From contig CAWFQB010000010.1 in the NCBI GenBank assembly GCA_963817895.1, positions 32,001 to 96,000 of the forward strand: a stretch of DNA of 64,000 nt, in the 5' to 3' direction. The stretch is from an uncultured Chthonomonadaceae bacterium (lineage in GTDB: Bacteria; Armatimonadota; Chthonomonadetes; Chthonomonadales; Chthonomonadaceae). The stretch's first letter is position 1. Each line of letters opens with the position of its first letter. Of the stretch, positions 28,085 to 56,309 are shown one piece after another. Position numbers and translations under genes: made by a program. Below the pieces are notes generated by a model. That model was not told where the DNA came from, did no database searches, and was given only the letters and a program-made list of their open reading frames with translations.

Positions 28085-29112
28085 GCCTGGTTGCCGAAGC
28101 GGGCGCAACGACCGGGATTGGCCGCGCCTGTGATGCGGTGCAACTGAGCCGCGCCCGCTTCTACCGGGAGCAACACGCTGGTACGGGCACAATCCAAGAA
28201 GGCGTCCTTGTTCCCAAAGCACAACGGGGTTCTCCTCGCCGCTTGTCGGAAGAGGAACGCGCCCTGTTGCTCAATCTACTCTTGTCGGAACGCTTTGTAG
28301 ACGCTTCGCCCCGGCAGGTGTATGCGCAATTGCTGCAAGAAGGCGTGTATCACGCTTCCTATCGCACGATGTATCGCCTGCTGCACGAACACCAAGCCAT
28401 CTGTGAGCGTCGGCGGGTTCGCAGGCATCCGGCGTATAGCAAACCTGAACTTAAGGCAACCGGCCCTAATCAGGTGTGGACATGGGACATCACCTACTTG
28501 AAGACGCCCATTCGGGGTCGCTTCTATTACTTATATGTGGTTATGGACATCTACAGTCGTTATGTGGTCGGCTGGATGCTCGCAGACCGGGAGTGTCAAT
28601 ACCTGGCGCACAAGCTGCTGCAAGAAACCTGTCGTAAATACAACATCGCGCCTAACCAACTCACCCTCCATGCGGATCGCGGCGGGCCGATGAAAAGCCA
28701 GTCGGTAGCGCAGCTCTTACTTTCGTTGCAGGTGACCCGTTCGCACAGCCGCCCGCGTGTCAGCAACGACAACCCGTACTCGGAAGCCGGGTTCAAAACG
28801 ATGAAGTACAGCGCCTACTTCCCGGAGCGCTTTAGCAGCCAGGAAGACGCGCAGACGTTCTGCCAGGACTACTTTGTCGGGTACAATACGTGCCACCACC
28901 ATACCGGCTTGGTGTTGCTTACGCCCGAACAGGTGCATTTCGGCGAAGCAACGCAGGTATTGGCGCAGCGGCAAGTCACGTTAGATAACGCCTATGCCGC
29001 GCATCCGCAACGCTTTCGAGAGCGTCCGCAGGCGGGGCAGTTACCCAACGTCGTCTGGATCAATGCGCCTGCGTTGCCCGTTGGCGAAGGCACAGCACCG
29101 GTTGCCGGTTGA
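28081..29112 (+). CDS. IS3 transposase OrfB (rve integrase)
   Basis: WTWDITY, LHADRG and SNDNPYSEA DDE motifs. Start approximate. Confidence 0.9.
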   Translation: MSLVAEAGATTGIGRACDAVQLSRARFYREQHAGTGTIQEGVLVPKAQRGSPRRLSEEERALLLNLLLSERFVDASPRQVYAQLLQEGVYHASYRTMYRLLHEHQAICERRRVRRHPAYSKPELKATGPNQVWTWDITYLKTPIRGRFYYLYVVMDIYSRYVVGWMLADRECQYLAHKLLQETCRKYNIAPNQLTLHADRGGPMKSQSVAQLLLSLQVTRSHSRPRVSNDNPYSEAGFKTMKYSAYFPERFSSQEDAQTFCQDYFVGYNTCHHHTGLVLLTPEQVHFGEATQVLAQRQVTLDNAYAAHPQRFRERPQAGQLPNVVWINAPALPVGEGTAPVAG

Positions 29113-29466: not shown

Positions 29467-30183
29467 CTAGACCATTGTTCTTTCGCGTAGGAAGGTGATA
29501 GCTCGATGGCGAAGTAGAAACACGAAAATACTTGTCGCAGCACTAACAAGAAGTGCAACACCATCAGCTTCTGGCACTGTCGCAGGTTCAAGCGTTACAC
29601 TGATGTCATCGAAAAAGGTCAGATGCTCCTCGTTGGGCAATGCGAACACAGAAAACTCCAACTTTGTGCTGCTTGAGGCAGCAAGTAGATGGCTAAAGAT
29701 ATACTGGCGATAGGCCGCGCCACCAGAGCCTGTAAAGGAAATTACGATTGGTGTTGGGGTTACAGGTTGGTCGCCAAATGTCACTGTCAACGGGCCGTCA
29801 AACGTTATTCCGTTTCCCGTATAGTTGAATGTGTTGTCGGTATAAAAACTCAGTTCATAAGTGCGGCCGGGAATCGTGTTCAGAGTTTGGGCAATAGCAC
29901 TGGAATCAGGAATAGCCTCCATGCTATTCAATAGGTACGCCGACTTTTGCCCTGAGTGGGCATAACCAACTGAATAGTAAGCCACGGCAATGCCACTGGT
30001 TGTTGTCCAGGCGCTGTCTCCAAAATCTGCTTGGTCTGGATAGTTGCTTGCATAATGAAAGGTGGGTACAGCTTGCTCAAATCCTGGATCAACTACGAGG
30101 TTCTGGGCTTGCACAGTAGATGCTAAAGTAAGATAGCAAAGTAAGAGGACAAAAGTGCTGTAACGCATCAGAATATTCTCCAA
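29467..30183 (-). CDS. PEP-CTERM-like surface protein with carbohydrate-binding-like domain
   Basis: Signal peptide, NLVVDPGFE, IAQTLNTIPGRTYELSF, FDDISV, then VPEADG-TM-basic tail. Confidence 0.75.
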   Translation of the reverse strand: MENILMRYSTFVLLLCYLTLASTVQAQNLVVDPGFEQAVPTFHYASNYPDQADFGDSAWTTTSGIAVAYYSVGYAHSGQKSAYLLNSMEAIPDSSAIAQTLNTIPGRTYELSFYTDNTFNYTGNGITFDGPLTVTFGDQPVTPTPIVISFTGSGGAAYRQYIFSHLLAASSSTKLEFSVFALPNEEHLTFFDDISVTLEPATVPEADGVALLVSAATSIFVFLLRHRAITFLRERTMV

Positions 30184-36344: not shown

Positions 36345-36638
36345 ATGGTTACACTGGATAGGCCCGCCGAAATCGCATTGGACACGCTGAAAGCGGAAGA
36401 CCGCATATTGGCGGAACGCGCGTTTGCCATTATCGAACGTTTTTCCGAAAACGATACGGCGCAGAAAATTCGCAAAGTGTCTATGCCTGATCCCTCCGAA
36501 GATTTTTATATTGTGGAACAGGGCCATCTGAGTTTTCTGTTTGAAGCGCATGGAGAGCGCAAATTGGTAGTAGACATCACGGCTACCGCCCGCCTCCGGT
36601 TTTTTCAAAAATTGCGCGAAGCGGAGACAGCGGCTTGA
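36345..36638 (+). CDS. small protein, possible RelE/ParE fold
   Basis: RBS GGAGG. Pattern AEIALDTL...KIRKV...FYIV...LSFLF...VVDI resembles RelE-like proteins. Confidence 0.45.
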   Translation: MVTLDRPAEIALDTLKAEDRILAERAFAIIERFSENDTAQKIRKVSMPDPSEDFYIVEQGHLSFLFEAHGERKLVVDITATARLRFFQKLREAETAA

Positions 36639-36689: not shown

Positions 36690-36966
36690 ATACCTTCAAC
36701 ATGGTTTCAGTCAAGTCGTAGATTGGTTCTACAAACTGGATGATACGCGGCACACAAAACAGTTTGAGGCTATGTTCGGCAGCAACGTTGAATACAGTGG
36801 TTTACTGGTAATCGGGCGCAACAGCGCTCTTAAACCCGGCGAACGGGATCGTTTGCGCTGGCGACAGCAAAATGTGCTTGTGAACTCGCGCAAGGTGGAA
36901 TGTGTCACCTTCGACGATTTGCATAGCGATCTGACAAGAAAGTTGAAACGATACTATCCCGTGTAA
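36690..36966 (+). pseudogene. Shedu (DUF4263) nuclease C-terminal fragment
   Basis: HGFSQVVDWFYKLDD...GLLVIGR...VECVTFDDL. No N-terminal part upstream. Confidence 0.7.
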
Positions 36967-37145
36967 TTTCTTATCGGAACACGAAGGACACGGAGAGGAA
37001 AACAGAGAGTGGAGAGGGAACTGTAGCGTTTCCTTTCTTCTCCTCTGTTCTCTCCGTGTCCTCCTTGGTTTTTTGTTCTTCCGGTTTATTCGCAGGGCGC
37101 AGAGCGCAGGAAAACAGGTTTTGCCCACGCTGCATCATGCAAAGT

Positions 37146-37855
37146 TCACGGCACAGGCAGGTATGTGATTTTGGAGAGGTTTTCCAGTTTCGTCCATTTG
37201 ACGTGCGAATCCACATACGCCATTTCAATGCCGCCGTTGTGACGGGCGATGCACAGCCGCCCCATGTTACTGCTGCTGTTCGCGCCGGTCTGCGTGTTGT
37301 ATTGCGAAGGGCAGGAGGTATCGCCATTGTAAATCCAGGCGTCAATCCAGATGGCGTCGGCCAACAGCATGGTCGAGGAGGGTTCCGGTACCTGGCTCAG
37401 ACTGCATACGCATCCCGGGTCTGAACTGCAGTACAGCCAGCCATTGTAGGCGTAACTGCCGTAGTATTTGTAGCCATTCCACGCCTGCGCACTGCTTCCC
37501 TATCCGGCGTAAGGACTGACAGCGTTGGTGCCGGGCCGGGCGTCCGGGCATATATGCACCTGTTTGTTTTTGATGTATGGCTCAAAGGCGACGTTCCAGA
37601 GGTAGCCGCTGTATGCAACGTGATAGTCCAGCAGTTGCTCGTCATAGTCCTGTGAGTACATCGTGGCTCCGTAGGATAGTTGCTTGAGGTTGCTGGCGCA
37701 GCTTGCCTGCCTCGCCTTTTCCCGCGCCTGCGCGAAAACGGGGAACAGAATGGCGGCGAGAATCGCGATGATGGCGATCACCACGAGCAGTTCGATCAAA
37801 GTAAAAGCGTTGCGCGTTGCGCGTTGCGTACTCGGATTTGGGAGATGCGTTTCAT
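37146..37855 (-). pseudogene. DUF1559 prepilin-type protein (out-of-frame leader, in-frame TAG near 37500)
   Basis: [43 protein letters not shown] at the N-terminus and RHNGGIEMAYVDSHVKW (H-X9-DG-like) at the C-terminus. Confidence 0.85.
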
Positions 37856-37958
37856 GGGCGAGAACTCCTTTTTCTATTTCTCTCTGCCTCCGGGAAGGTG
37901 AAGCGGAGGCAGAGAGTTTGCGTCCCGTCAGGGGGAGCAAAGCAGCAAACGCGACAAA

Positions 37959-39011
37959 TCAGCGGATGCGGTTTTTGCGACGGCGCAGAAAGCCCGCGCC
38001 CGCTACGCCCATGCCCACAAGCAAGGCGACGCTGCCGGGTTCGGGTACGACGGTGACGAGGAGATTGTGATACATGCCATTAGCGTCGATGTAATAGCCG
38101 ACGAACTGCGTGGCGTTGTTGGTGCGGCCCAGTTCCGTATCAACAGCGCCGGGAACCGCTATCGAGGTATAGCTGCCGTTGCTGGTGTCGTAAATGTAAG
38201 CATTACGATTGTCTGGGGTGTGCGCTTGAGGCTCATAGTTGCCAAAAATCAGCCCGGTGGTGGTGATGCCGTCGGAAGATGTACTGTAGGCGCCGGGAAC
38301 GTTCAGATACGTCGTCATCCCGTTTTGGGTAATGGAGCCCTCGTAGGTATCGTCAGTGAGAGAAGCAAGCGTGACCAGATTTTCGCCATTGGGGCCAATC
38401 GCCTGGAGTTCATTGTTCCGGGGCTGGCCGTTTTGGTCTTTAATGTCCGCGATGGGCGTGAACGTGTCGGTCGCGATGTTGTAGCTGGCAATGCGGTTAT
38501 CACCAATGTAGCCATATTGAACGGCGACGATACCGGCCTCATTGACATTCTCGAGGTTTGTGTAGCCGAAACTCAGGCCCGTCATCGGGTCTGTAACCTT
38601 TGGGGCGGTGAAAGCGGCGGGGTTGCTGGTGCCGAGGTTGCTGTTGTAGATGAAATCCGTGGTGTAGTTGAAGCTGGAGTCAAGGGTCTGACCAGTCACA
38701 TACCCGGCGTTGTTGATGCCGTTATAGTACAGGATTTGCGTGTTGGCAGCACCGGGATAGTCAATGGGGAGGGTAAAGGTGCCGTCGGGACTGCGAATGT
38801 AGCCGTGATTGACGCCGCTGGGGTCCACATAGGTTCCGGTGATGCTGCCCGACGCGCTGATGCCCGATGCGCCCGAACCAATTGGCCCCTGTCCAGGCAC
38901 ATCAAACGTGTCCAGGCGGAAGGACAACTGCGCATTGGCGGGACGGGCGGCAAACAGGGCCAGAGTGGACAGGGCGATCAGGCCGGCTTGCAGGAAAAGA
39001 GTGCGAGGCAT
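37959..39011 (-). CDS. PEP-CTERM surface protein with HAF-like beta repeats
   Basis: Signal peptide, GINNAGYVTG-type repeats, VPEPGSVALLVGMGVAGAGFLRRRK. Confidence 0.9.
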   Translation of the reverse strand: MPRTLFLQAGLIALSTLALFAARPANAQLSFRLDTFDVPGQGPIGSGASGISASGSITGTYVDPSGVNHGYIRSPDGTFTLPIDYPGAANTQILYYNGINNAGYVTGQTLDSSFNYTTDFIYNSNLGTSNPAAFTAPKVTDPMTGLSFGYTNLENVNEAGIVAVQYGYIGDNRIASYNIATDTFTPIADIKDQNGQPRNNELQAIGPNGENLVTLASLTDDTYEGSITQNGMTTYLNVPGAYSTSSDGITTTGLIFGNYEPQAHTPDNRNAYIYDTSNGSYTSIAVPGAVDTELGRTNNATQFVGYYIDANGMYHNLLVTVVPEPGSVALLVGMGVAGAGFLRRRKNRIR

Positions 39012-39097
39012 AGAGTTCTCCTTTTTGTGATAACAGACGTAAAACTAAACGCTGGGTGTATTTGTGGAAGCGACGATGGTTCATTTCCGACACTCTC

Positions 39098-39151
39098 AGA
39101 ATAACGTTATTTTCGTGACCGCTCCGTGACCGTTACAGGCATTTTCGTGAC
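39098..39151 (-). promoter_or_regulatory. SARP-type direct-repeat promoter
   Basis: GTCACG-N5-GTCACG-N10-TATTCT, plus a third GTCACG upstream. Confidence 0.7.
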
Positions 39152-39270
39152 GCTTTTTCCCGGTATCGTTACGGAGGAATTTTGCGCGGAAACGGCGAAC
39201 TGTTTGCCATCTTTGAAAAGCGCTTTGCTTTTGTTATTGCTTTCTTGAACCGGCAGGAAATCAGCCTTTT

Positions 39271-41239
39271 ATGTCCTCCCCACTCGCCATTCATCTGTTT
39301 GAAACATTCCGCGCCGAGCGCGGCCCTATCGCCCTGTCCGGCCTGCATCTGCGGGAGGGTGAGCGGCTGCTGGCCTATTTCGCGTTGCGGAACAGCGAAC
39401 CGGTGGCGGCGCGGGAACTGGCAAAGCATTTCTGGCCCACCGAAGCCGAAGTCAGCCCGGGGAGCGAGGGCAATTTCCCCAGCGTCCGTCAGGCGTTGAG
39501 CGCGCTGCGACAGGCGCTCGGCGCGGACGCGCGCAGGATCACTCGCCCCACGCGGGCAACCGTGCGGTTCGACGTTACAGGCATTGAATGTGATGTTCTG
39601 GCGTTCGACGCGCTGACGCAGGTTGGGGCAGGGGAGAGTTCCGGGAGTGGGGAGAAGGAGGCCGCGCGCATTGCCTGTGAAGCCTGGACGGAGGCGGCAG
39701 CATTGTATCGCGGCCCGCTGCTGGCGGCGTGGGACGATGCCTGGGTGAAAGAAGCGCGAACCCGCCGTCAGCGTACCTATGAGCGAACATTGCGCCGCCT
39801 GATTGAATATGCGCGGCTTCAGGGCGAATGGGGGGAAGTGGAACGCTGGACGCGCCGCCTGGTGGCCGCGGGCCCACCGATGAGGAAGCAAGGCGCGACC
39901 TGCTCCGCCTGTTAAGCGCGTCGGGACGACATGCCGAGGCGGGGGAGATGCTGGACAGTCTGGCGGACGCGGCAAAGGCGGCAGGGCAGGCGCTGCAGCC
40001 GGAAACGCTCGCGCTGGCCGGGGAACTAAGGCAGGCGCGCGAGCGCGTTCCTCTGTCCGCAGGAGCGATTACGCCGCCTGTGGCTGTGACCGGATTGGCA
40101 GCCGCTCCGCCGCAGAACAAAACATCGGCAACAATCGCGCGTACCGCTAATCAGGAGAACAGCGTTCCTCCTCCTCCGGTCAACAGCGATGCCACACAGG
40201 AGTTTGCCGCCCTGCCCATAGAACCGGCGGGGGGCGCGGTTCCCGTGCAGTTGCCCTACTATATTGAGCGCGAGGGAGATGCGGAGTTTCACGCCGCGCT
40301 TGCGCGGAGCGACAGCATCCTCGTGATTTGGGGGGCGCGGCAGGTGGGCAAAACCAGCCTGATGGCGCGGGGACTGCACAGGGCGCGGCAGGCCGGGATG
40401 CGCGTGGTCGTAACGGATTTCCAGAAAATCAATGCGGAGCAGCTTGTCTCGGCTAATACGCTGTATCTCGCCCTCGCCGAGTCGCTTGCGATACAGCTCG
40501 ATCTCGACGTTCTGCCCGGCGAGGACTGGAATCTGGCGTTCGGGCCGAACATGAATTTGGAACGGTATCTGCGGCGGCGCGCGCTGCGCGCTTTTCCCGA
40601 ACCCCTCGTCTGGTGTCTGGATGAGGTAGACCGGCTGTTTACCTGTTCGTTCGGCCAGGAAGTGTTCGGCCTGTTTCGCTCCTGGCACAACGAACGCGCT
40701 CTGGACCCTGCGTGTCCCTGGTCGCGGCGTTTCGCTGGCCCTCGCCTGCGCGACGGAAGTGAGCCTGTTCATTACCGACATCAACCTGTCGCCTTTCAAC
40801 GTTGGGACGCGGCTGATCCTGGAAGATTTCACGCTCGCGCAGGTGGAGGAACTGAACCGGCGCTATGGCGGAGTTCTGTCGGAAGAAGAGTGCGCGCGTT
40901 TTCACGTCCTGACGGGCGGCCACCCGTACCTGACGCGGCGGGGATTGGATGCCGCGCGGCGGGGGCTGTTCCTGGAACGCATGGAGCGGGAGGGACACCA
41001 CGCTGACGGTCCCTTTGGGGAGCATCTGCGCCGCCTGTCCTCCTTCCCTGTCGCCGGAACTGCTGGAAGTAGTGCGCGAAATGCTTGCCGGACGCCCCTG
41101 CTCCGACCCGAAAGCGTTCTATCGCCTGCGCACGGGCGGCATACTGACCGGCGCGTCGTGTGGGGAAGCTCGGTGGCGCTGCCGCCTGTACGCCGCGTTT
41201 CTGAGCAGCCAGTTTGCCCCTTTCCCGCCCATCGCGTAA
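39271..41239 (+). CDS. SARP/BTAD transcriptional activator fused to AAA_35 ATPase (about 3 frameshifts)
   Basis: LLAYFALR...ELAKHFWP winged HTH, CDVLAF...[19 protein letters not shown], then [27 protein letters not shown] and TGGHPYL AAA_35 motifs. Confidence 0.85.
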
Positions 41240-41256
41240 CGATTGGCGCCCATTTC

Positions 41257-41289
41257 GTCACGCAGTCGTCACGAAAGACAGCGTATACT
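41257..41289 (+). promoter_or_regulatory. SARP-type direct-repeat promoter
   Basis: GTCACG-N5-GTCACG-N10-TATACT. Confidence 0.7.
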
Positions 41290-41330
41290 ATCCTGAAAAT
41301 GCGGGTGTTGGGACAGCAGGACAACCAGAT

Positions 41331-44300
41331 ATGACGACGCAGGCAAACAATTTCTATATCACGGGGGAACTCTGCCCCTGGACTCCGGCTCGTATGTGAC
41401 GCGGCAGGCGGACACGGAACTGCTGGAAGGACTGAAGCGCGGCGAGTTCTGCTATGTGCTGAACACGCGGCAGATGGGCAAGTCGTCGCTCATGGTGCGA
41501 ACGGCGCGCGACCTGCGAAAGATGGGCTGCCGCATCATTATCCTGGACCTGACGGCCATCGGCCAGAATTTGACTATCGAATAGTGGTACTCCGGGCTGG
41601 TGGGACGCATCGCGCAGCAAACCGACCGGGAGGACGAACTGCTCGACTTCTGGGAAGCGCATGCAACTCTGGGGCCGATGCAGCGATTTGTCGAAACCCT
41701 GCGCCGCGTTCTGTTGACGCGCAAGCCGTCCGGCGAGACAGGCAACGCGGCGGGAGTGGCGGAGGACGGCAGGCTTGTTTTGTTCATAGACGAGATTGAC
41801 GCGGTGCGCAGCCTGCCGTTTTCCACCGACGAGTTTTTCGCCGGCATCCGCGAGTGTTACAATCACAAGGCGACCGAGTTTGCGTTCAACAATCTTACCT
41901 TCTGTCTGCTGGGCATGGCGACGCCGAGCGATCTGATCCGCGATACCCGCGTCACTCCCTTCAACATCGGACAGCGTATCGAACTGCGCGACTTTACCCG
42001 CGAAGAAGCCCTGCCGCGAGCGGCAGGGCTGAAAATACAGCGCAGTGAACCGGAAGCGGAACTGCTGCTCGAGCGCGTTCTTTACTGGACGGGCGGGTAT
42101 CCCTACATGACGCAGCGCCTTTGCCGCGCCGTTGCCGACAGCCTGACCGCGCAGAGTGAAAGTCCGAATGTTTCGAGTTGGAGCGGCAAGCGGGACGGGA
42201 TCGAAGACGCCGCTCTGGTGGACAGCCTGTGTCAGCGTTTGTTTTTAACCCGAACGGCGCAGGAGACGGATGACAACCTGGCGTTCCGCGCGCGCGCCTG
42301 CTGCACAGCGAGGAAGACCGCGCGGCCCTGCTGGATTTGTACGGGCAGGTGCGGCGTGGTAAGCGGGTACGGGATGATGAAACGAACCCCCTGTGTCCCA
42401 TACTGCGGCTGTCGGGCGTGGTGAAGGCGTCGGGCGGCGCGCTGCTCCTGCGCAACGCGATTTACGCGCGCGTGTTCGATGCCGCCTGGATTGCCGAGTA
42501 CATGCCGGATGCCGAAGTGAGGCGGCAGAAACGCGCGTTTCGGCGGGGCGTTTTGCGAACCGCAGCCGTGTTCGGCAGCCTGACCCTTGTGATTGGCGCG
42601 TTGCTGTTCGTCGCCGTTGTGAACGCGAAGCGCGCCCACGTTGCCGAAGCCGACGCGCAGAAGCAGGCGGCGTATGCCCGCGAACAGGCGGATTATGCCC
42701 GCGAGCAAGCGCAGGCCGCTTCCCAATTGCTCTACGACGCGAACATGAACCAGGTACAGCATGATTGGGAACTGGGAAATTTAACAGTCGCGAACGGCCT
42801 GCTGCAAGAGACGAAAGACAGCCCGGCGTGCGGTTTCGAGTGGGAGTATTGGAACCGCCTGCAAAACGAGTACGCCGCGCCCCTCCCCACGACAAACTTG
42901 TTCTGGGCATTGATCGCGCCGGACAATCGCACACTGGGGGTAATCACGCGGGAGGAACAATCCCCGGAAAAAGGCCGCTTTACCGCGCGGGATTTGTTCA
43001 CCGGAATTGCGCGGTTTTCCACTCCGGCGCGTTGTCTTGTATCGCCGTCCCTGGCGTATTCGCCGGACGGCAGCCGCCTGCTGCTGTGCGTCGGCAAAAC
43101 CGTGGAAGTGAGGGACGCGCAGAACGGACGGCTGCTGCAAATGGTTCCCGCGCGACAGGAGGACGTTCTCACCTTCCAGTTCACGAGGGACGGCGCGGCG
43201 ATTCTGGTGGCGCGAACCGGGGGATTGCTGACGCTTTGGGATTGTCACACGGAAAGAACGCTATGGGAACGCAAAATACCTGTAACAGATAGGGTCTGCA
43301 TTGTCACGAGTGATAAGAGCGCGGCTACAATTATAGCAACAGGCGAATATACAGGCGTGATGCAGATTTGGGATATTGCAGCCGGCGACGAATTGTACCG
43401 TAATGACCGGAATTTCAATTGCGGGCCGCTTGCCTTTTCGCCCGATGGCCGCTTTCTTGTGGGAAGGCAAGCGGAGATGGGATTGAAATCCTTGAACTGT
43501 CAACGCGCGCGCTGCGAAATCTCTTCGACCCTCCCGGCCCCGCCTATTCCTACCACTTTTCCCGGATAAACGTCGGCTGACAGTGGGCTATGCGGGGCGC
43601 ATTTGTACCTATGATATGTCGTCAGGCCGCCTTCTGAGCGACCCTCCCAAGTCCAGTACCGGCTGTGACGAGGTATGTATTTCCCCGAATGGCCGCTTCG
43701 CGCTTCGCGCCGAGAGAGATGACAAATTTCACTTTGTCCGAACCACGCCCCGCGCCGCTTCCCTGCGCCTGATTCCGCCTTCCGCGCCGCAAGTCCTGCC
43801 TGATGGCAAATCGCGTCGCGCTCCGCTGTGGAGAAGTCGTTACTCGCCCGACGGCCGGCGGCTGGCGACCCCCTGTGGGGATGGCAACGTGTATCTATGG
43901 GACACCGGCACGGGGAAATTGCTTCAAACGCTGCGAGGCGACGGGGTACGGGCGAATGTCGCCGCGTTTTCCCACGATGGCAGCCGCCTTGCCGTAGGCG
44001 ACGATGCGGGCCGGATCAGCCTGTGGGATTTGCAAGCCGGGAAGCGCCTGATTCAATTTCGCGCCCACATCAGGCTGAACACCCATATACCGGACCAAAC
44101 AGGACTGGTCAACGATATACGCTTCACTTTGGATGATCGGCAGTTACTCACAGCCGGCGACGACTTCACCGCGAAAATATGGGACTTGGCGGCGGGAAGC
44201 GGAACCGCGCCACGCCTGCATATCGCGCTGCAAGGGCATACCTATGCCGTGGAGTGTTTCCTACTTGCTCCTGACGGCGCCACTCTGCTGACGGGCAGTG

Positions 44301-44716
44301 ATGATGGAACGGCAAAACTGTGGGAGCGCCGTACCGGGCGTCTGCTGGCTACCTTCAAGTCGTCGGCGGAAATCTGGAGCGCGGCGTTTTCGCCGGATGG
44401 CAGGCAGATTGCCCTTGCCACGCTGTATAAAACCGCTGAAGTATGGGACATCGGCACACATCGGAAACTTCACACCCTCAGCGGGCATCTGGATTGGGTG
44501 ACGGATGTGGCCTACTCGCCGGACGGCAAGCGCATCATAACGAGCAGCAGAGACAAAACGGTGAAACTGTGGGACGCGCAAACGGGCCGGGAACTGCTCA
44601 CGCTGCGCGGGCATACCAAACAGGTTATCAGCGTCGCCTTTTCTCCGAACGGGCGTCAAATCGCCACATCCGGTTCCGATGGAATCGCGCGTCTGTGGAA
44701 TACCGATACCAACTAA
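41331..44716 (+). CDS. AAA_35 ATPase-TM-WD40 protein (frameshifts and in-frame TAG at 41582)
   Basis: YVTRQAD...[57 protein letters not shown] linker; many WD40 repeats. Confidence 0.85.
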
Positions 44717-44821
44717 TACAGGCTGCTTGAAGTTGGACGCGCACGTCATCTGGCGCGCTGTGTCCCGTTCATGGCTAAAGACAGGAAAAATCAGGTTCTT
44801 CCCCGTGTTCCCTGTGGTCTA

Positions 44822-45817
44822 TCATTCCCCTGGTTGCGCGAAGTGGCAGGCGGCGAACTGTCCATCACCCATTGCGCGTAGCGCGGGAACTTCCTGTGCG
44901 CAAATCTCCTGCGCGAGGGGACAGCGGGTTCGGAAACGGCAGCCGGAAGGCACATCAACGGGGGAAGGCACGTCGCCTTCCAGTAGCGGTCGGTCGTGGC
45001 GCAACGCGGGATCGGCAATGGGCGCGGATGCAAGCAGCAGTTGCGTATACGGGTGTTTGGGCAGGGAAAAGACGCGCTCGCTCGGCCCCTCTTCCACAAT
45101 CACGCCAAGATACATTACGCACACGCGGTCACAGAAATGCCGCACGATAGACAGGTCATGCGCGATAAACAGGTACGCCAATCCGCGCTCCGCCTGAATG
45201 TCGGACAGCAAATTCAGTATCTGCGCCCGAATCGAGACATCGAGGGCGGAAATCGGCTCGTCCAGTATCAGCAGTTTGGGATTGGTGGCGAGGGCGCGGG
45301 CAATCCCGATGCGCTGCCGCTGTCCGCCCGAAAATTCATGCCCGTAGCGCGTGGCGAATTCGGGACGCAGCCCGACATTTTGCAGCAGTTCGCGGGCGCG
45401 TTCCAATCCCTCCTGCCGCGAAGTCACCAGTTTGTGGGCGCGTAACGGCTCGGCTACAATGTCGCCGATCATCATGCGCGGGTCCAGAGCGGCATACGGG
45501 TCCTGAAAGACGATGTTCATGCGCTGCCGCATCCGGCGCAAACCTTCGCCCTGCAACGCCAGCACGTTTTCGCCCTCCAGGTGTACCTGCCCGCCTGTCG
45601 GCTGCAACAGCCGCAGAATGGCCCGTCCCGCCGTGCTTTTGCCACAGCCGCTTTCCCCCACCAGTCCAACCGTCTCTTTCGCGCCAACGGTCAGATCAAT
45701 GCCATCCACTGCCCGCACGGTTTTTATCGCCATGCGCCAGCCCTGCCGCTGATGTATATGAAAGTGCTTGACCAATCCCTGTACCGTCAGCAGCGTTCCC
45801 GCTTCAGCATGTCTCAC
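44822..45817 (-). CDS. oppF: oligopeptide/dipeptide ABC transporter ATP-binding protein (OppF-like)
   Basis: GESGCGKST, FSGGQRQR, HPYT and GCRFRTRCP. Confidence 0.9.
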   Translation of the reverse strand: MRHAEAGTLLTVQGLVKHFHIHQRQGWRMAIKTVRAVDGIDLTVGAKETVGLVGESGCGKSTAGRAILRLLQPTGGQVHLEGENVLALQGEGLRRMRQRMNIVFQDPYAALDPRMMIGDIVAEPLRAHKLVTSRQEGLERARELLQNVGLRPEFATRYGHEFSGGQRQRIGIARALATNPKLLILDEPISALDVSIRAQILNLLSDIQAERGLAYLFIAHDLSIVRHFCDRVCVMYLGVIVEEGPSERVFSLPKHPYTQLLLASAPIADPALRHDRPLLEGDVPSPVDVPSGCRFRTRCPLAQEICAQEVPALRAMGDGQFAACHFAQPGE

Positions 45818-53736: not shown

Positions 53737-55104
53737 ATGGAAGACATCCTGAAAAATCTCTATAACGACTGCGACCCGCTGAAACCTGCGCAGCCGAAAT
53801 TTTATACCGACCTTTCCACGGTGCGCGGGGGCGAAACGTTCATCAAGACGCTGTGCGAAGAGTTGGAGCGTTCTACGGGGAATGTGTGCGTCTTGTTTAC
53901 CGGGCATAGCGGGTGCGGTAAGTCCTCCTAACTGCAAAAACTAACCCATGAACTGCGGACAGTCCGCGAAAAGCCGTCCCACAACCGCTACTTCCCCGTG
54001 TATATTGACGCGCTGGAATATATTGATGTTTTCGATGCCTCGCTTCAAGAGATACTGCTGTCCATTGTTTCCGAGTTGGCGGCTGCGGTTTTGAAGGAGG
54101 GCATTGAACTGAAAAACACCGTCCTGCAAAGTATGTTCAATGAGATCGCAGGATATGTTACCGGCTCGAAACCCACAAAAATCACCCTGCCTTTCGGGGA
54201 AGCGAAACTTGAAATCGCGCTGAATCGGGCGGACCCCAGTATTCGGGAACAGGTTCGCCAGTATCTTAAGCCGCGCACTTCCAGCTTGGTCACGGAAATC
54301 AATAATGTCCTGATTGATGCGCGGACACAACTGAAGGCGAAAATGCCGAGGGATGGCGGCCCCATTTACCGGGATATTGTGATCGTCGTGGACAATCTGG
54401 AAAAGATACAAACGCTGGCGGGACACGAAATGGGAGAAAATTCGGCCCATGCGCTGTTCATCGAGGGTGCGCCCCAACTCTCCGCGCTCAAAGCGCACGT
54501 TATCTACACGGTACACCTTTCCCTGGCGCGCGCGAACGGACATGAATTACTGATTGCTTACGGCAAGGAACCCGTCGTCCTATCCAATGTGAAGACGGAG
54601 GAGCGTACCAGTCACGCGCCCTGGCAGCCGGGACGCGAGGCTTTGCGCGAACTTCTCGCAAAGCGCGTCCACCCGTTGCGGTTGGAGCAGGTTTTTGATG
54701 AGGATGCCCTTGCGTTCATCCTGACGTACTGCGGCGGACATGCGCGACAGTACCTGAACTTTGCGCGCGAGTCCACGCTGTACACGGACACGACGCCGAT
54801 TTCCCTGCAAGCGGTGCAACGAGCGGTAACGCAGTCGGTTCCCTTCTTCAGCACGGAAATGGATGACAACGACTGGAAATTGCTGGCCGAACTGGAGCAT
54901 AACGGCAAACAACGCTGGAACACGAAAACCCCGGAAAGACGCCTGTTAATGGATAGGCTGTGCGTTCTGGAATATATCAACGGCGACCGCGCGCAGGATA
55001 TGTTCAATAAGGCGATGCCTTGGTACGCCGTACACCCGATTGCGCGCGAACTTGACCCCTTCCGGGAGGCGTTGGACGCTTTGCAGCAGGGAGAAACCTC
55101 ATGA
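53737..55104 (+). pseudogene. P-loop/AAA ATPase with in-frame TAA just after Walker A
   Basis: FTGHSGCGKSS*LQKL, continuing in frame to VVDNLEK and YCGGHARQ. Confidence 0.75.
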
Positions 55105-56309
55105 ACGCAGTTTCCGAAAATAACGCGATCCTGTTCAACAGTAAGCCGCCTGACAACGCCACACGGCGGGCAACACTGGCACGCGAACTCCGTGTCGCGC
55201 AGGGTTTCACGCTGATTTTCGCTTTGTGCAATACGGCTGACGAACGCGCCCGCCAAATTGCCGCGCTGAAAGCGGAACTCCCCGACTTAAACATACAGGA
55301 AATTCCGGTTCGCAAACAGATACCGCATCTGCTGGATGTCCTGCGGGCCACATTGGAGGAGCCACTCCCCGATGCCGTGTTCGTATACGGCATGGAAAAC
55401 TGGCTGCGGGGCGATAGTAACCCACGTTCCAATCCCTTTGTCCTCAATCTGAACGCGGCCCGCAACCATTTCAGCGCAGATTGTCCCTGTCCCCTCGTCT
55501 TCTGGATACCCGAATTCCTGTTTCGGCTCCTTATCGGCGGCGCGCCCGACTTCGTTTCGGTACGCAGCGGCCTTTATGTCTTTACAGCCTCTTTGTCGGA
55601 GACAAGAGAAACTACACAAACGTTACAGACACCCGGCTTGACGGAAGTATCAGGACTGTCACTAAGCGAAAAGCAACAACGCTTGGAAGAGTTGAAGGAA
55701 TTACTAATCCGTGTGCAAAGCCTACCGAAGAAAAGCCGCTATTGGCAAGATGAGGTAGCTGTCTTAGACCAACTAGCCATGGCCTATTATGTGCTGGGAT
55801 ACTACCGTGAAGCCGAACCGCTGTATCAGCAGGCATTGGATATTCGGCGCTATTTCTTTCCAAAAGGGCATCCCATCATTGCTCAAACCCTCAATAATCA
55901 GGCGGTGTTGTACGTATCACAAGGCAAGTACGAGCAAGCCGAACCGCTATATCAGCAAGCATTGGACATTTGGCGTAAGGCAGTTGGGGAACGCCATCCT
56001 GATTATGCCACTTGTCTCAACAGTCTGGCGGCATTGTATCAGCAACAAGGTAGGTATGAGCAAGCCGAACCGCTGTATCAGCAGGCATTGGATATTCGGC
56101 GCAAGTTCTTGTCATCAGGGCATCCTGACTTTGCCATTAGCCTCAACGATCTGGCGGAGTTGTACAAGGCACAAGGTCGCTATGAGGAGGCCGAATCGCT
56201 TTACGACGAGGCGTTGAAGATATTAGAACAAGCATTGGAACCGGAACACCCAAATACCGTAATTGTGCGTGAAAACTTGAAAAGATTTCGTCAGCAACGA
56301 CTAAAATAA
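55101..56309 (+). CDS. TPR protein coupled to the ATPase
   Basis: ATGA overlap; LVFWIP...APDF N-domain; 42-aa repeats AEPLYQQALDI. Confidence 0.88.
   Translation: MNAVSENNAILFNSKPPDNATRRATLARELRVAQGFTLIFALCNTADERARQIAALKAELPDLNIQEIPVRKQIPHLLDVLRATLEEPLPDAVFVYGMENWLRGDSNPRSNPFVLNLNAARNHFSADCPCPLVFWIPEFLFRLLIGGAPDFVSVRSGLYVFTASLSETRETTQTLQTPGLTEVSGLSLSEKQQRLEELKELLIRVQSLPKKSRYWQDEVAVLDQLAMAYYVLGYYREAEPLYQQALDIRRYFFPKGHPIIAQTLNNQAVLYVSQGKYEQAEPLYQQALDIWRKAVGERHPDYATCLNSLAALYQQQGRYEQAEPLYQQALDIRRKFLSSGHPDFAISLNDLAELYKAQGRYEEAESLYDEALKILEQALEPEHPNTVIVRENLKRFRQQRLK

Follow-up and report, generated by a model that had tools for sequence, protein, structure and literature searches.

Paired STAND ATPases with a SARP output and a predicted membrane receptor beside surface-protein genes of an uncultured Chthonomonadaceae bacterium

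We analyzed 64,000 nucleotides (nt) of contig CAWFQB010000010.1 (positions 32,001 to 96,000, or G000:C10:32001-96000 in our numbering; this whole stretch is called the window, and positions below refer to it) from GCA_963817895.1, the 7.48-Mb, 14-contig, 81% complete assembly of an uncultured Chthonomonadaceae bacterium. Two tandem genes in the window, A and B, each encode a STAND ATPase module of the AAA_35 type and are transcribed divergently from genes for a PEP-CTERM surface protein and a prepilin. The system at this locus is real and recurrent, and we propose, with a probability of roughly 0.58, that it is a kinase-free transmembrane signaling pair in which B relays an outside signal to A, which activates the surface-protein operon as well as B. 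The pair is proposed to be built from two paralogous MNS-like STAND ATPases.

In the proposed mechanism, B would be a single-pass receptor with its ATPase inside the cell and an exchangeable WD40 sensor outside, as hydropathy and charge suggest. A signal at the propellers would pass through the coiled coil and the helix to the ATPase of B, which would nucleate a hetero-oligomer with the ATPase of the soluble A protein, with invariant arginines acting in trans. The SARP domains of A, once clustered, would bind the GTCACG direct repeats, which cover the -35 region, and would bring in RNA polymerase in the manner of AfsR. The targets would be the PEP-CTERM/prepilin operon and gene B itself, the latter creating a feedback loop.

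Domain architecture of the two genes

Pfam scans of the locus pieces recovered, each in its place, all parts of the tandem AAA_35 pair that an earlier sequence-only reading of this DNA had named, and the divergent PEP-CTERM and prepilin genes are likewise present as it described them (Table 1). Gene A, which would encode about 655 amino acids (aa) if whole, carries a BTAD domain (PF03704; E = 3.6e-5, 24.6 bits against a cut-off of 22.1), and its winged helix-turn-helix (wHTH) domain is weak in the broken piece (Trans_reg_C, E = 0.006, under cut-off). Intact homologues show BTAD at up to E = 3e-24 plus Trans_reg_C; two of them are L039 and P0271 (655 aa, 82 to 88% identical per piece). The description of A as a wHTH/BTAD activator fused to AAA_35 thus holds. 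Its AAA_35 domain (PF14516; curated Pfam cut-off, 27 bits) is matched in two pieces, at E = 2.2e-30 (profile positions 4 to 161; 106 bits) and E = 2.3e-17 (positions 183 to 271; 63.3 bits), with Walker A GARQVGKT and Walker B LDEVD. The protein ends with this module and has no sensor repeats, NB-ARC, or C-terminal TPR.

The largest piece of gene B matches AAA_35 at E = 1.7e-11 (44 bits) and has Walker A NTRQMGKS and Walker B IDEID. A basic motif directly precedes a hydrophobic 19-mer that scores 2.6 on the Kyte-Doolittle (KD) scale, compared with at most 1.36 in the other seven A and B pieces, and WD40 propellers follow; Pfam and hydropathy therefore agree with the earlier picture of an AAA_35 domain, one transmembrane helix, and a WD40 part. 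The blades are divergent, with an internal self-identity of 37.5% in the last open reading frame (ORF) of B. Pfam scans of nine locus pieces returned no match to two-component parts of the histidine kinase type (HisKA/HATPase, receiver).

The A and B modules align with each other at 29% identity (P = 100). In alignments of the A and B types, the Walker A lysine is kept in 58/58 and 52/52 sequences and the Walker B aspartate in 56/58 and 52/52, and both modules have an invariant arginine at what appears to be the position expected of an arginine finger. Predicted models of the two modules (predicted local distance difference test scores of 94.8 and 92.0) match best the archaeal STAND proteins 2qen and 2fna, followed by Orc1/Cdc6 and CED-4. 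This layout, which comprises a P-loop Walker A, an hhhhDE Walker B, a GxP helical domain, and a winged helix, identifies A and B as STAND modules, for which nucleotide-switched oligomerization is presumed.

Table 1. Coordinates of the locus in the window
Feature	Position	Strand	Basis or remark
Prepilin-type gene (N-methyl, DUF1559-like)	37146..37855	-	Second in divergent operon; TAG at 37500-37502, start out of frame
PEP-CTERM surface protein gene, 350 aa, intact	37959..39011	-	VPEPGS-hydrophobic-RRRK tail, signal peptide, variable mature domain
Predicted SARP operator and promoter of PEP-CTERM/pilin operon	39098..39172	-	Repeat pattern; same geometry in L039
Gene A: wHTH-BTAD (SARP), Pro/Ala linker, terminal type-A AAA_35 STAND module	39271..41239	+	Pfam, intact homologues
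Predicted SARP operator and internal promoter of gene B	41236..41289	+	Repeat pattern; kept before B in L039, L040, and contig C9 of G000
Gene B, cytoplasmic part: type-B AAA_35 STAND module and basic juxtamembrane motif	41331..42564	+	Pfam; two indels, one TAG
Gene B, single predicted transmembrane helix	42565..42621	+	Kyte-Doolittle 2.6
Gene B, predicted coiled coil and LYDANMN..GFEWEYW linker	42622..42870	+	Coiled coil judged from sequence
Gene B, WD40 propellers (about two by length), divergent blades	42871..44716	+	WD40 E = 2.8e-57; frame change near 43465-43560

Distribution and pairing of the two ATPase types

This genome gave 25 AAA_35 matches and 14 control genomes gave none; among relatives, 22 of 41 genomes were matched. 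The cultured Capsulimonas corticalis also encodes a type-B protein (P0011). The matches are of two types: type A has an effector first and the ATPase last, and type B has the ATPase first, followed by a helix and a sensor. The two form separate clades in a FastTree tree (16 B rows at support 100), and both clades include cyanobacterial members. A single origin of the SARP-bearing A genes (SARP-A) was considered and is not supported by this tree.

We surveyed 71 regions fetched around matches in this genome and its relatives (chosen from 150 listed of 183) and 78 named GTDB loci (from the best 80 of 185 confirmed); the pairing counts leave out six duplicates and those A genes without their C-terminal part. 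All 33 complete SARP-A genes of this genome and its relatives have a B gene in the same region, directly downstream in 29 cases, and among the named loci 6 of 7 SARP-A genes have one, in tandem in 5. Non-SARP A genes have a tandem B in 42 of the 62 named loci with room downstream and in 8 of 31 cases in relatives. The pairing spans at least five phyla and every output type, so the co-occurrence in other genomes on which the sequence-only reading had staked its case is widespread. Two proteins, P0265 and P0266, hold whole B and A modules in one chain, and P0266 also carries EAD1. Two further candidates for such fusions, P0262 and P0264, were rejected; their A module is truncated and runs on into off-frame text, so that they look like frameshift read-throughs.

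The pair behaves as a modular chassis in which the outputs of A (TIR, cyclase, kinase, trypsin, wHTH) and the sensors of B (WD40, TPR, PEGA) vary. Effectors on A include SARP, cyclase-TIR, cyclase, trypsin, kinase-TIR, TIR, and CHAT domains, with a plain wHTH in acidobacterial loci; the sensor on B is mostly WD40 (28 of 32 in one set scanned), and TPR, PEGA, CarboxypepD_reg, caspase, and GUN4 also occur. SARP pairs have less repetitive sensors than other pairs do (median, 38% versus 48%; p = 0.007), which makes these sensors unlike fast-turnover immune propellers. The paired ATPases, together with the predicted operator before the surface-protein genes and before B (described below), suggest that a receptor pair of the immune type was converted to signaling without a kinase. 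A broader claim, to which we give slightly less than an even chance, is that the A/B pair represents an unrecognized general class, a heteromeric transmembrane relay resembling nucleotide-binding leucine-rich repeat receptors (NLRs) with exchangeable sensors and outputs, and that in Armatimonadota many parallel circuits with their own operators select which PEP-CTERM and prepilin proteins are displayed.

Several other pairs were observed in the survey. In L112, L120, L161, L166, L167, and L168 (five of the six labeled Acidobacteriota), a plain wHTH (Trans_reg_C) A gene lies beside a B gene with a transmembrane helix and WD40; by its domain content, this is a putative second, BTAD-less transcriptional version of the pair. 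In this genome, where TIR-bearing A genes sit elsewhere than at the locus, G000:C10:186313-195257 (L027) has two tandem B genes with highly repetitive WD40 (75 to 79% self-identity) before a cyclase-TIR-A gene, with WRAP 2ymu as the best PDB match (E = 3.6e-224), which amounts to a WRAP-like, immune-looking array in the same genome. At G000:C2:628253-633002 (L026), two B-type genes lie after a TIR-A gene; the product of one lacks a helix, and that of the other has two hydrophobic segments at its end.

Membrane topology of the B family

Topology was judged from hydropathy and lysine/arginine (K/R) charge. A helix at KD of at least 1.6 follows the module directly in 100 of 105 full B proteins, and 83 of those 100 have more K/R before it than after it. 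Among SARP-A homologues, only 3 of 120 have any segment at or above 1.8. PEGA and CarboxypepD_reg domains, which are located outside the cell, replace WD40 in 5 of 31 scanned B tails. A search with the linker found 140 new proteins, of which 78 were too short to class and 62 had at least 300 residues before the linker; the latter comprise 28 type-B ATPases and 34 Ser/Thr kinases, in each of which a hydrophobic helix precedes the linker. The earlier remark that the LYDANMN..GFEWEYW linker resembles that of transmembrane Ser/Thr kinase-WD40 receptors was therefore correct. Together, these data favor an N-in orientation, with the predicted B ATPase inside and the WD40 sensor outside.

A predicted operator before the surface-protein operon and before gene B

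Direct repeats with an 11-bp period occur upstream of SARP-A genes. Before the PEP-CTERM gene, GTAACG/GTCACG hexamers lie at 39172, 39151, 39136, 39130, and 39119, the last two on the 11-bp period and followed after 10 nt by TATTCT. Before gene B, GTAACG at 41236 is followed by GTCACG at 41257 and 41268, again with an 11-bp period, and then by 10 nt and TATACT. A pattern drawn partly from both of these sites (GTMACV-N5-GTMACV-N10-TANNNT) has exactly two matches in the window, one ahead of the PEP-CTERM gene and one in the gap preceding B, versus no match in 100 shuffles. Genome-wide it has eight sites, all preceding prepilin, secreted, or B genes; three of the eight helped to define the pattern, and the other five precede one B gene, two prepilins, and two signal-peptide proteins, one of them Ig-like-rich. 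Seven of the sites lie in the three SARP-A/PEP-CTERM loci, and the eighth is in front of another prepilin gene. The 10-nt spacing gives these eight sites and most other spacings give 0 to 2, the hits at 12 and 15 nt being mostly the same sites read again.

All four sites of the C9 locus read GTAACG, and those of C5 and C10 read GTCACG; the activators of C9, C5, and C10 have a distinct recognition region in common. Counting loci of other genomes, the predicted operator precedes B in four. Exact hexamer repeats at period 11 were found upstream of 16 of 38 SARP-A genes (2 to 6 at other periods) and upstream of 8 of 79 other A genes (5 to 13 at other periods). Across 41 genomes, the pattern has 28 matches versus 7 for a reversed control, and outside G000 half of its sites (10 of 20) have a SARP or AAA_35 gene within 1.5 kb. 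In the accessible part of PMC11301090, AfsR is described as binding direct repeats that end 8 nt before the -10 box. A sigma-70 consensus scan of positions 36900 to 45000 found no promoters (2.4 in shuffles), an uninformative result; none is expected if the activator site replaces the -35 element. A predicted SARP-type operator links the activator to the PEP-CTERM gene and to B.

Three operator-like sites elsewhere deserve mention. An orphan operator at G000:C1:1629438 precedes a prepilin gene and has no SARP gene closer than 1.5 kb, which makes it a possible trans target. At G000:C9:79937-80062 (L196/L198), two GTAACG operators lie back to back before divergent secreted-protein genes, one of which encodes Ig-like and choice-of-anchor Q domains, and the C9 SARP-A regulon is thereby predicted to extend to four promoters. 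In three same-genus genomes (G000:C4:748821, L190, and L194), the same operator lies between a SARP gene that gave no AAA_35 match and a conserved 267-aa gene that resembles isochorismatase/nicotinamidase (labeled by eye).

Surface-protein genes as outputs

The PEP-CTERM motif is plain in the sequence, and its PF07589 score of 20.4 bits falls just under the 20.7 cut-off; the protein had no NCBIfam match at E = 1e-4. The prepilin matches N_methyl at E = 4.4e-8, TIGR02532 over cut-off, and DUF1559 at E = 2.4e-6 over profile positions 2 to 31 only, and it has a 72% identical paralogue on C9 and an intact 225-aa orthologue in L039. Motif matches in this genome number 89 for PEP-CTERM and 71 for prepilin. 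A divergent PEP-CTERM gene lies within 1.3 kb of 3 of the 5 complete SARP-A genes here, compared with 4% of random points within 2 kb. Among the 38 SARP-A genes, 14 divergent neighbors could be identified, of which 11 start hydrophobic. A universal PEP-CTERM/pilin output was rejected, as only 3 of the 14 are PEP-CTERM and 1 is a pilin. Surface or secreted outputs are common, and the PEP-CTERM/pilin pair is specific to one clade. The earlier proposal that the system switches on surface proteins thus gains from the predicted operator that ties the activator to the PEP-CTERM gene and B; its restriction to a PEP-CTERM/pilin output was too narrow.

The same-genus genome L039 has the locus intact, at 78 to 82% nucleotide identity over the promoter, A, and B up to 42569 (82% for the cytoplasmic part of B) and at 79% in the pilin. 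Homology stops at 42569; beyond the helix, B of L039 carries an unrelated linker and sensor. In its PEP-CTERM protein, only the signal region and the tail align, and the mature domain differs. Sensor and output therefore vary on a fixed ATPase core.

Breaks in this copy

The sequence-only reading had noted indels and in-frame stops and wondered whether this copy is damaged. We counted nine breaks: three in A, four in B, and two in the pilin. Relative to L039, single-base indels lie at 39871, 40728, and 41044 in A and at 41366 and 42287 in B; the other two breaks in B are a TAG at 41582 and, in the WD40 part, a change of frame that falls between about 43465 and 43560. In addition to its TAG codon, the pilin has a ribosome-binding site and ATG (37855) that are out of frame, unlike in 44 of the 46 pilin genes of the genome having such a start. 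About three tandem copies of the 7-nt unit CGCAACG (37808-37830, minus strand) lie between this start and the N-methyl motif, where the frame is lost; an assembly slip and phase variation are both candidate readings of the repeat.

One alternative holds that the nine breaks are real and that this copy is a decaying pseudogene cluster. Break density is about threefold that of 50 other genes compared with their same-genus orthologues (about 1.2 versus 0.34 per kb), two of the breaks are stop codons, and WD40 genes in this family are described as commonly disrupted in the accessible text of PMC9218822. Yet 12 of those 50 genes are also broken (14 frameshifts and 6 stops in 59 kb, a count that includes errors of the query genomes), and this assembly has common, clustered breaks throughout. 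The indels at 40729, 41042, and 41365 are absent from related-strain contigs of run X2. Run X1 (depth, about 2) may be the source sample; of its listed pieces, the three that lie clear of any break match the window letter for letter, and the two that span a break each differ by exactly one gap or one other letter, at unlisted positions. Furthermore, the operators and the PEP-CTERM gene are unbroken. The breaks are probably mostly assembly errors rather than decay. A real pseudogene cluster is the less likely explanation, although it should be taken seriously; the damage that was noted exists in the assembled sequence and is more likely an artefact.

Weighing the relay against other readings

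Several observations count against the proposed relay. A truncated SARP-A gene on C14 of G000, which lacks its C-terminal part and was excluded from the 33, has no B within 14 kb. The distances of A and B pairs co-vary (Spearman 0.78 for 31 pairs and 0.83 for 11 pairs of one genome), which shows that the two genes duplicate as a unit; this joint duplication alone explains the co-variation, which is no sign of contact. A helix is lacking in 5 of the 105 B proteins here and in both B-WD40 proteins of the cyanobacterial locus L206, and P0265 and P0266 join B to A without an intervening helix, so the family also works wholly in the cytoplasm. The caspase and GUN4 domains that follow the helix in some B proteins are not typical outside sensors. 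At the level of the operator, the strict pattern precedes the divergent gene in only 2 of 38 SARP-A loci, and the bare repeat pair shows no genome-wide enrichment (24 at the 5-nt spacer versus 10 to 43 at others). Matches to the pattern are likewise present next to SARPs that lack AAA_35, and two genomes that gave no AAA_35 match (G013 and G032) contain it as well, so another SARP could read the operator.

In one competing reading, B holds A inactive at the membrane in the manner of an anti-sigma factor, the signal frees A, and A-driven expression of B is negative feedback. The STAND activator MalT is sequestered by a membrane-bound ATPase, and a B gene with its own predicted SARP operator, as in the four loci above, is what would be expected of an induced inhibitor. 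This arrangement is improbable, given that B keeps its full catalytic motifs and arginine and that the same B type pairs with TIR, cyclase, and protease outputs, which usually need oligomerization.

We regard as no more probable the possibility that the locus is an immune or conflict receptor pair of the cyanobacterial kind, which senses an invader or non-self cell and answers with a transcriptional change of coat instead of killing. The cyanobacterial operon is read as innate immunity in the available portion of PMC9218822, A partners carry TIR, CHAT, trypsin, and cyclase domains, and P0266 has EAD1. Close relatives have exchanged sensors and the mature domains of PEP-CTERM proteins, and the SARP label changes 14 times on the A tree, at least 6 of them on well-supported branches, with some truncated genes mislabeled. 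Against this, the locus holds no toxic effector and is flanked by zinc protease, ABC transporter, and translation genes. Searches of seven proteins for catalogued anti-phage STAND systems (Avs and others; PADLOC library dated 2023) gave no match over most of a model's length, only partial repeat or TIR matches in 3 of the 7, and none for SARP-A. The A module had no match in 50,697 phage records, and the propellers of SARP pairs are old and divergent.

Least probable of all is that A is a self-sufficient, one-component AfsR-like activator with an internal ligand and B just a target gene, the ATPases never touching: B does have its own predicted promoter, is near A without being in tandem in 4 of 33 loci, and is often missing beside non-SARP A genes (9 of 32 in relatives and 23 of 70 named loci, some of them on short contigs), but A ends with its ATPase and has no sensor repeats, the pairing extends over at least five phyla and every output type, and B-A fusions exist.

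Other features of the window

A 97-aa ORF without a Pfam match, short and RelE-like by eye, lies between the protease and the pilin (36345-36638, plus strand). A second PEP-CTERM-like gene (29467-30183, minus strand; VPEADG tail) lies 7 kb from the locus and lacks the strict operator, and an IS3-like transposase gene at 28138-29112 (plus strand) has an apparently identical copy at C1:512352, beside another B gene. At 53998-56309 (plus strand), a P-loop-like gene followed by a degenerate-ATPase-TPR gene resembles, by eye, another two-gene NTPase pair.

Comparison with known systems

The STAND transcription activators characterized so far (AfsR and MalT) each consist of one cytoplasmic chain, and paired STANDs have been interpreted as immune systems. 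If the proposed relay is correct, STAND-STAND signaling would add an outside-to-promoter route that needs neither phosphotransfer nor proteolysis, and it would be a case of an immune-type chassis put to use in gene control. The relay can be tested directly through the predicted operator, the feedback promoter of B, and the natural sensor swap at the helix, and these offer a first handle on the regulation of the large PEP-CTERM and prepilin families in these bacteria.

The literature search returned no paper on a SARP-AAA_35 plus membrane STAND pair, with most subscription papers outside its coverage. The accessible parts of PMC7159879 and PMC5587647 contain nothing on such a pair, that of PMC6805158 adds nothing on the architecture of the Npun_R6612 type, and seven supplements of the PMC13581612 survey, as far as available, contain no pfam14516, AAA_35, or BTAD.

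The structural matches of both modules, PabY2304 (2qen) and SSO1545 (2fna), are archaeal ATPases that liken them to the MNS clade, which we take SSO1545 to typify. AAA_35 is presumably the Npun2340/2341 family, whose two namesake genes we take to be adjacent. The Npun2340/2341 family of the MNS clade is named in PMC8195603, which also describes an nSTAND2 two-gene operon that, like A and B, has two STAND modules with arginine fingers in both and a proposed hetero-multimer. There, one partner is inactive and carries GT4 or HEPN, whereas A and B both keep their Walker motifs and belong to the AAA_35 family.

Gene A resembles the AfsR-type large SARPs (SARP-NB-ARC-TPR) and MalT in the fusion of wHTH-BTAD to a STAND ATPase, and the locus shares with AfsR the direct repeats just before the -10 box (PMC11301090, in the part available). 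AfsR-like activators are single tripartite chains according to the accessible portion of 10.64898/2026.09.02.748808; unlike them, A has AAA_35 in place of NB-ARC and no TPR in the chain, and the sensor is a separate membrane STAND protein. With transmembrane Ser/Thr kinase-WD40 receptors, B shares the helix-linker-WD40 unit but has a STAND ATPase as its cytoplasmic signaling domain.

The closest published relative is the cyanobacterial operon that couples the gene for the STAND-WD40 protein Npun_R6612 (WRAP) with a TIR-STAND gene; it is conserved in cyanobacteria and is proposed to act in innate immunity (PMC9218822, in the part available). By that description, both systems consist of two coupled STAND genes with an effector on the first and WD40 on the second, and the statement of the sequence-only reading that no characterized system has this design was too strong. 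Pairs on Nostoc and Leptolyngbya plasmids (CHAT-TIR-A plus B, and HTH-A plus B with a transmembrane helix and WD40) fall in the same A and B clades, and the Nostoc CHAT-TIR-A plus B pair fits the published description; Npun_R6612 itself was not found by name among the 120 matches listed. The available text of PMC9218822 on this operon mentions neither a helix nor a transcriptional output. Unlike the Npun_R6612 type, the locus has a SARP output with a predicted operator and regulon instead of TIR or caspase, its B family is almost always membrane anchored directly after the ATPase, and its blades are 37.5% self-identical rather than recently amplified and nearly identical. With the paired-STAND core already in print, the system is less new than first thought, and with a predicted operator tying the activator to its targets and to the receptor, it is better supported than before; what is new is the SARP-output, membrane-anchored form of an already known core.

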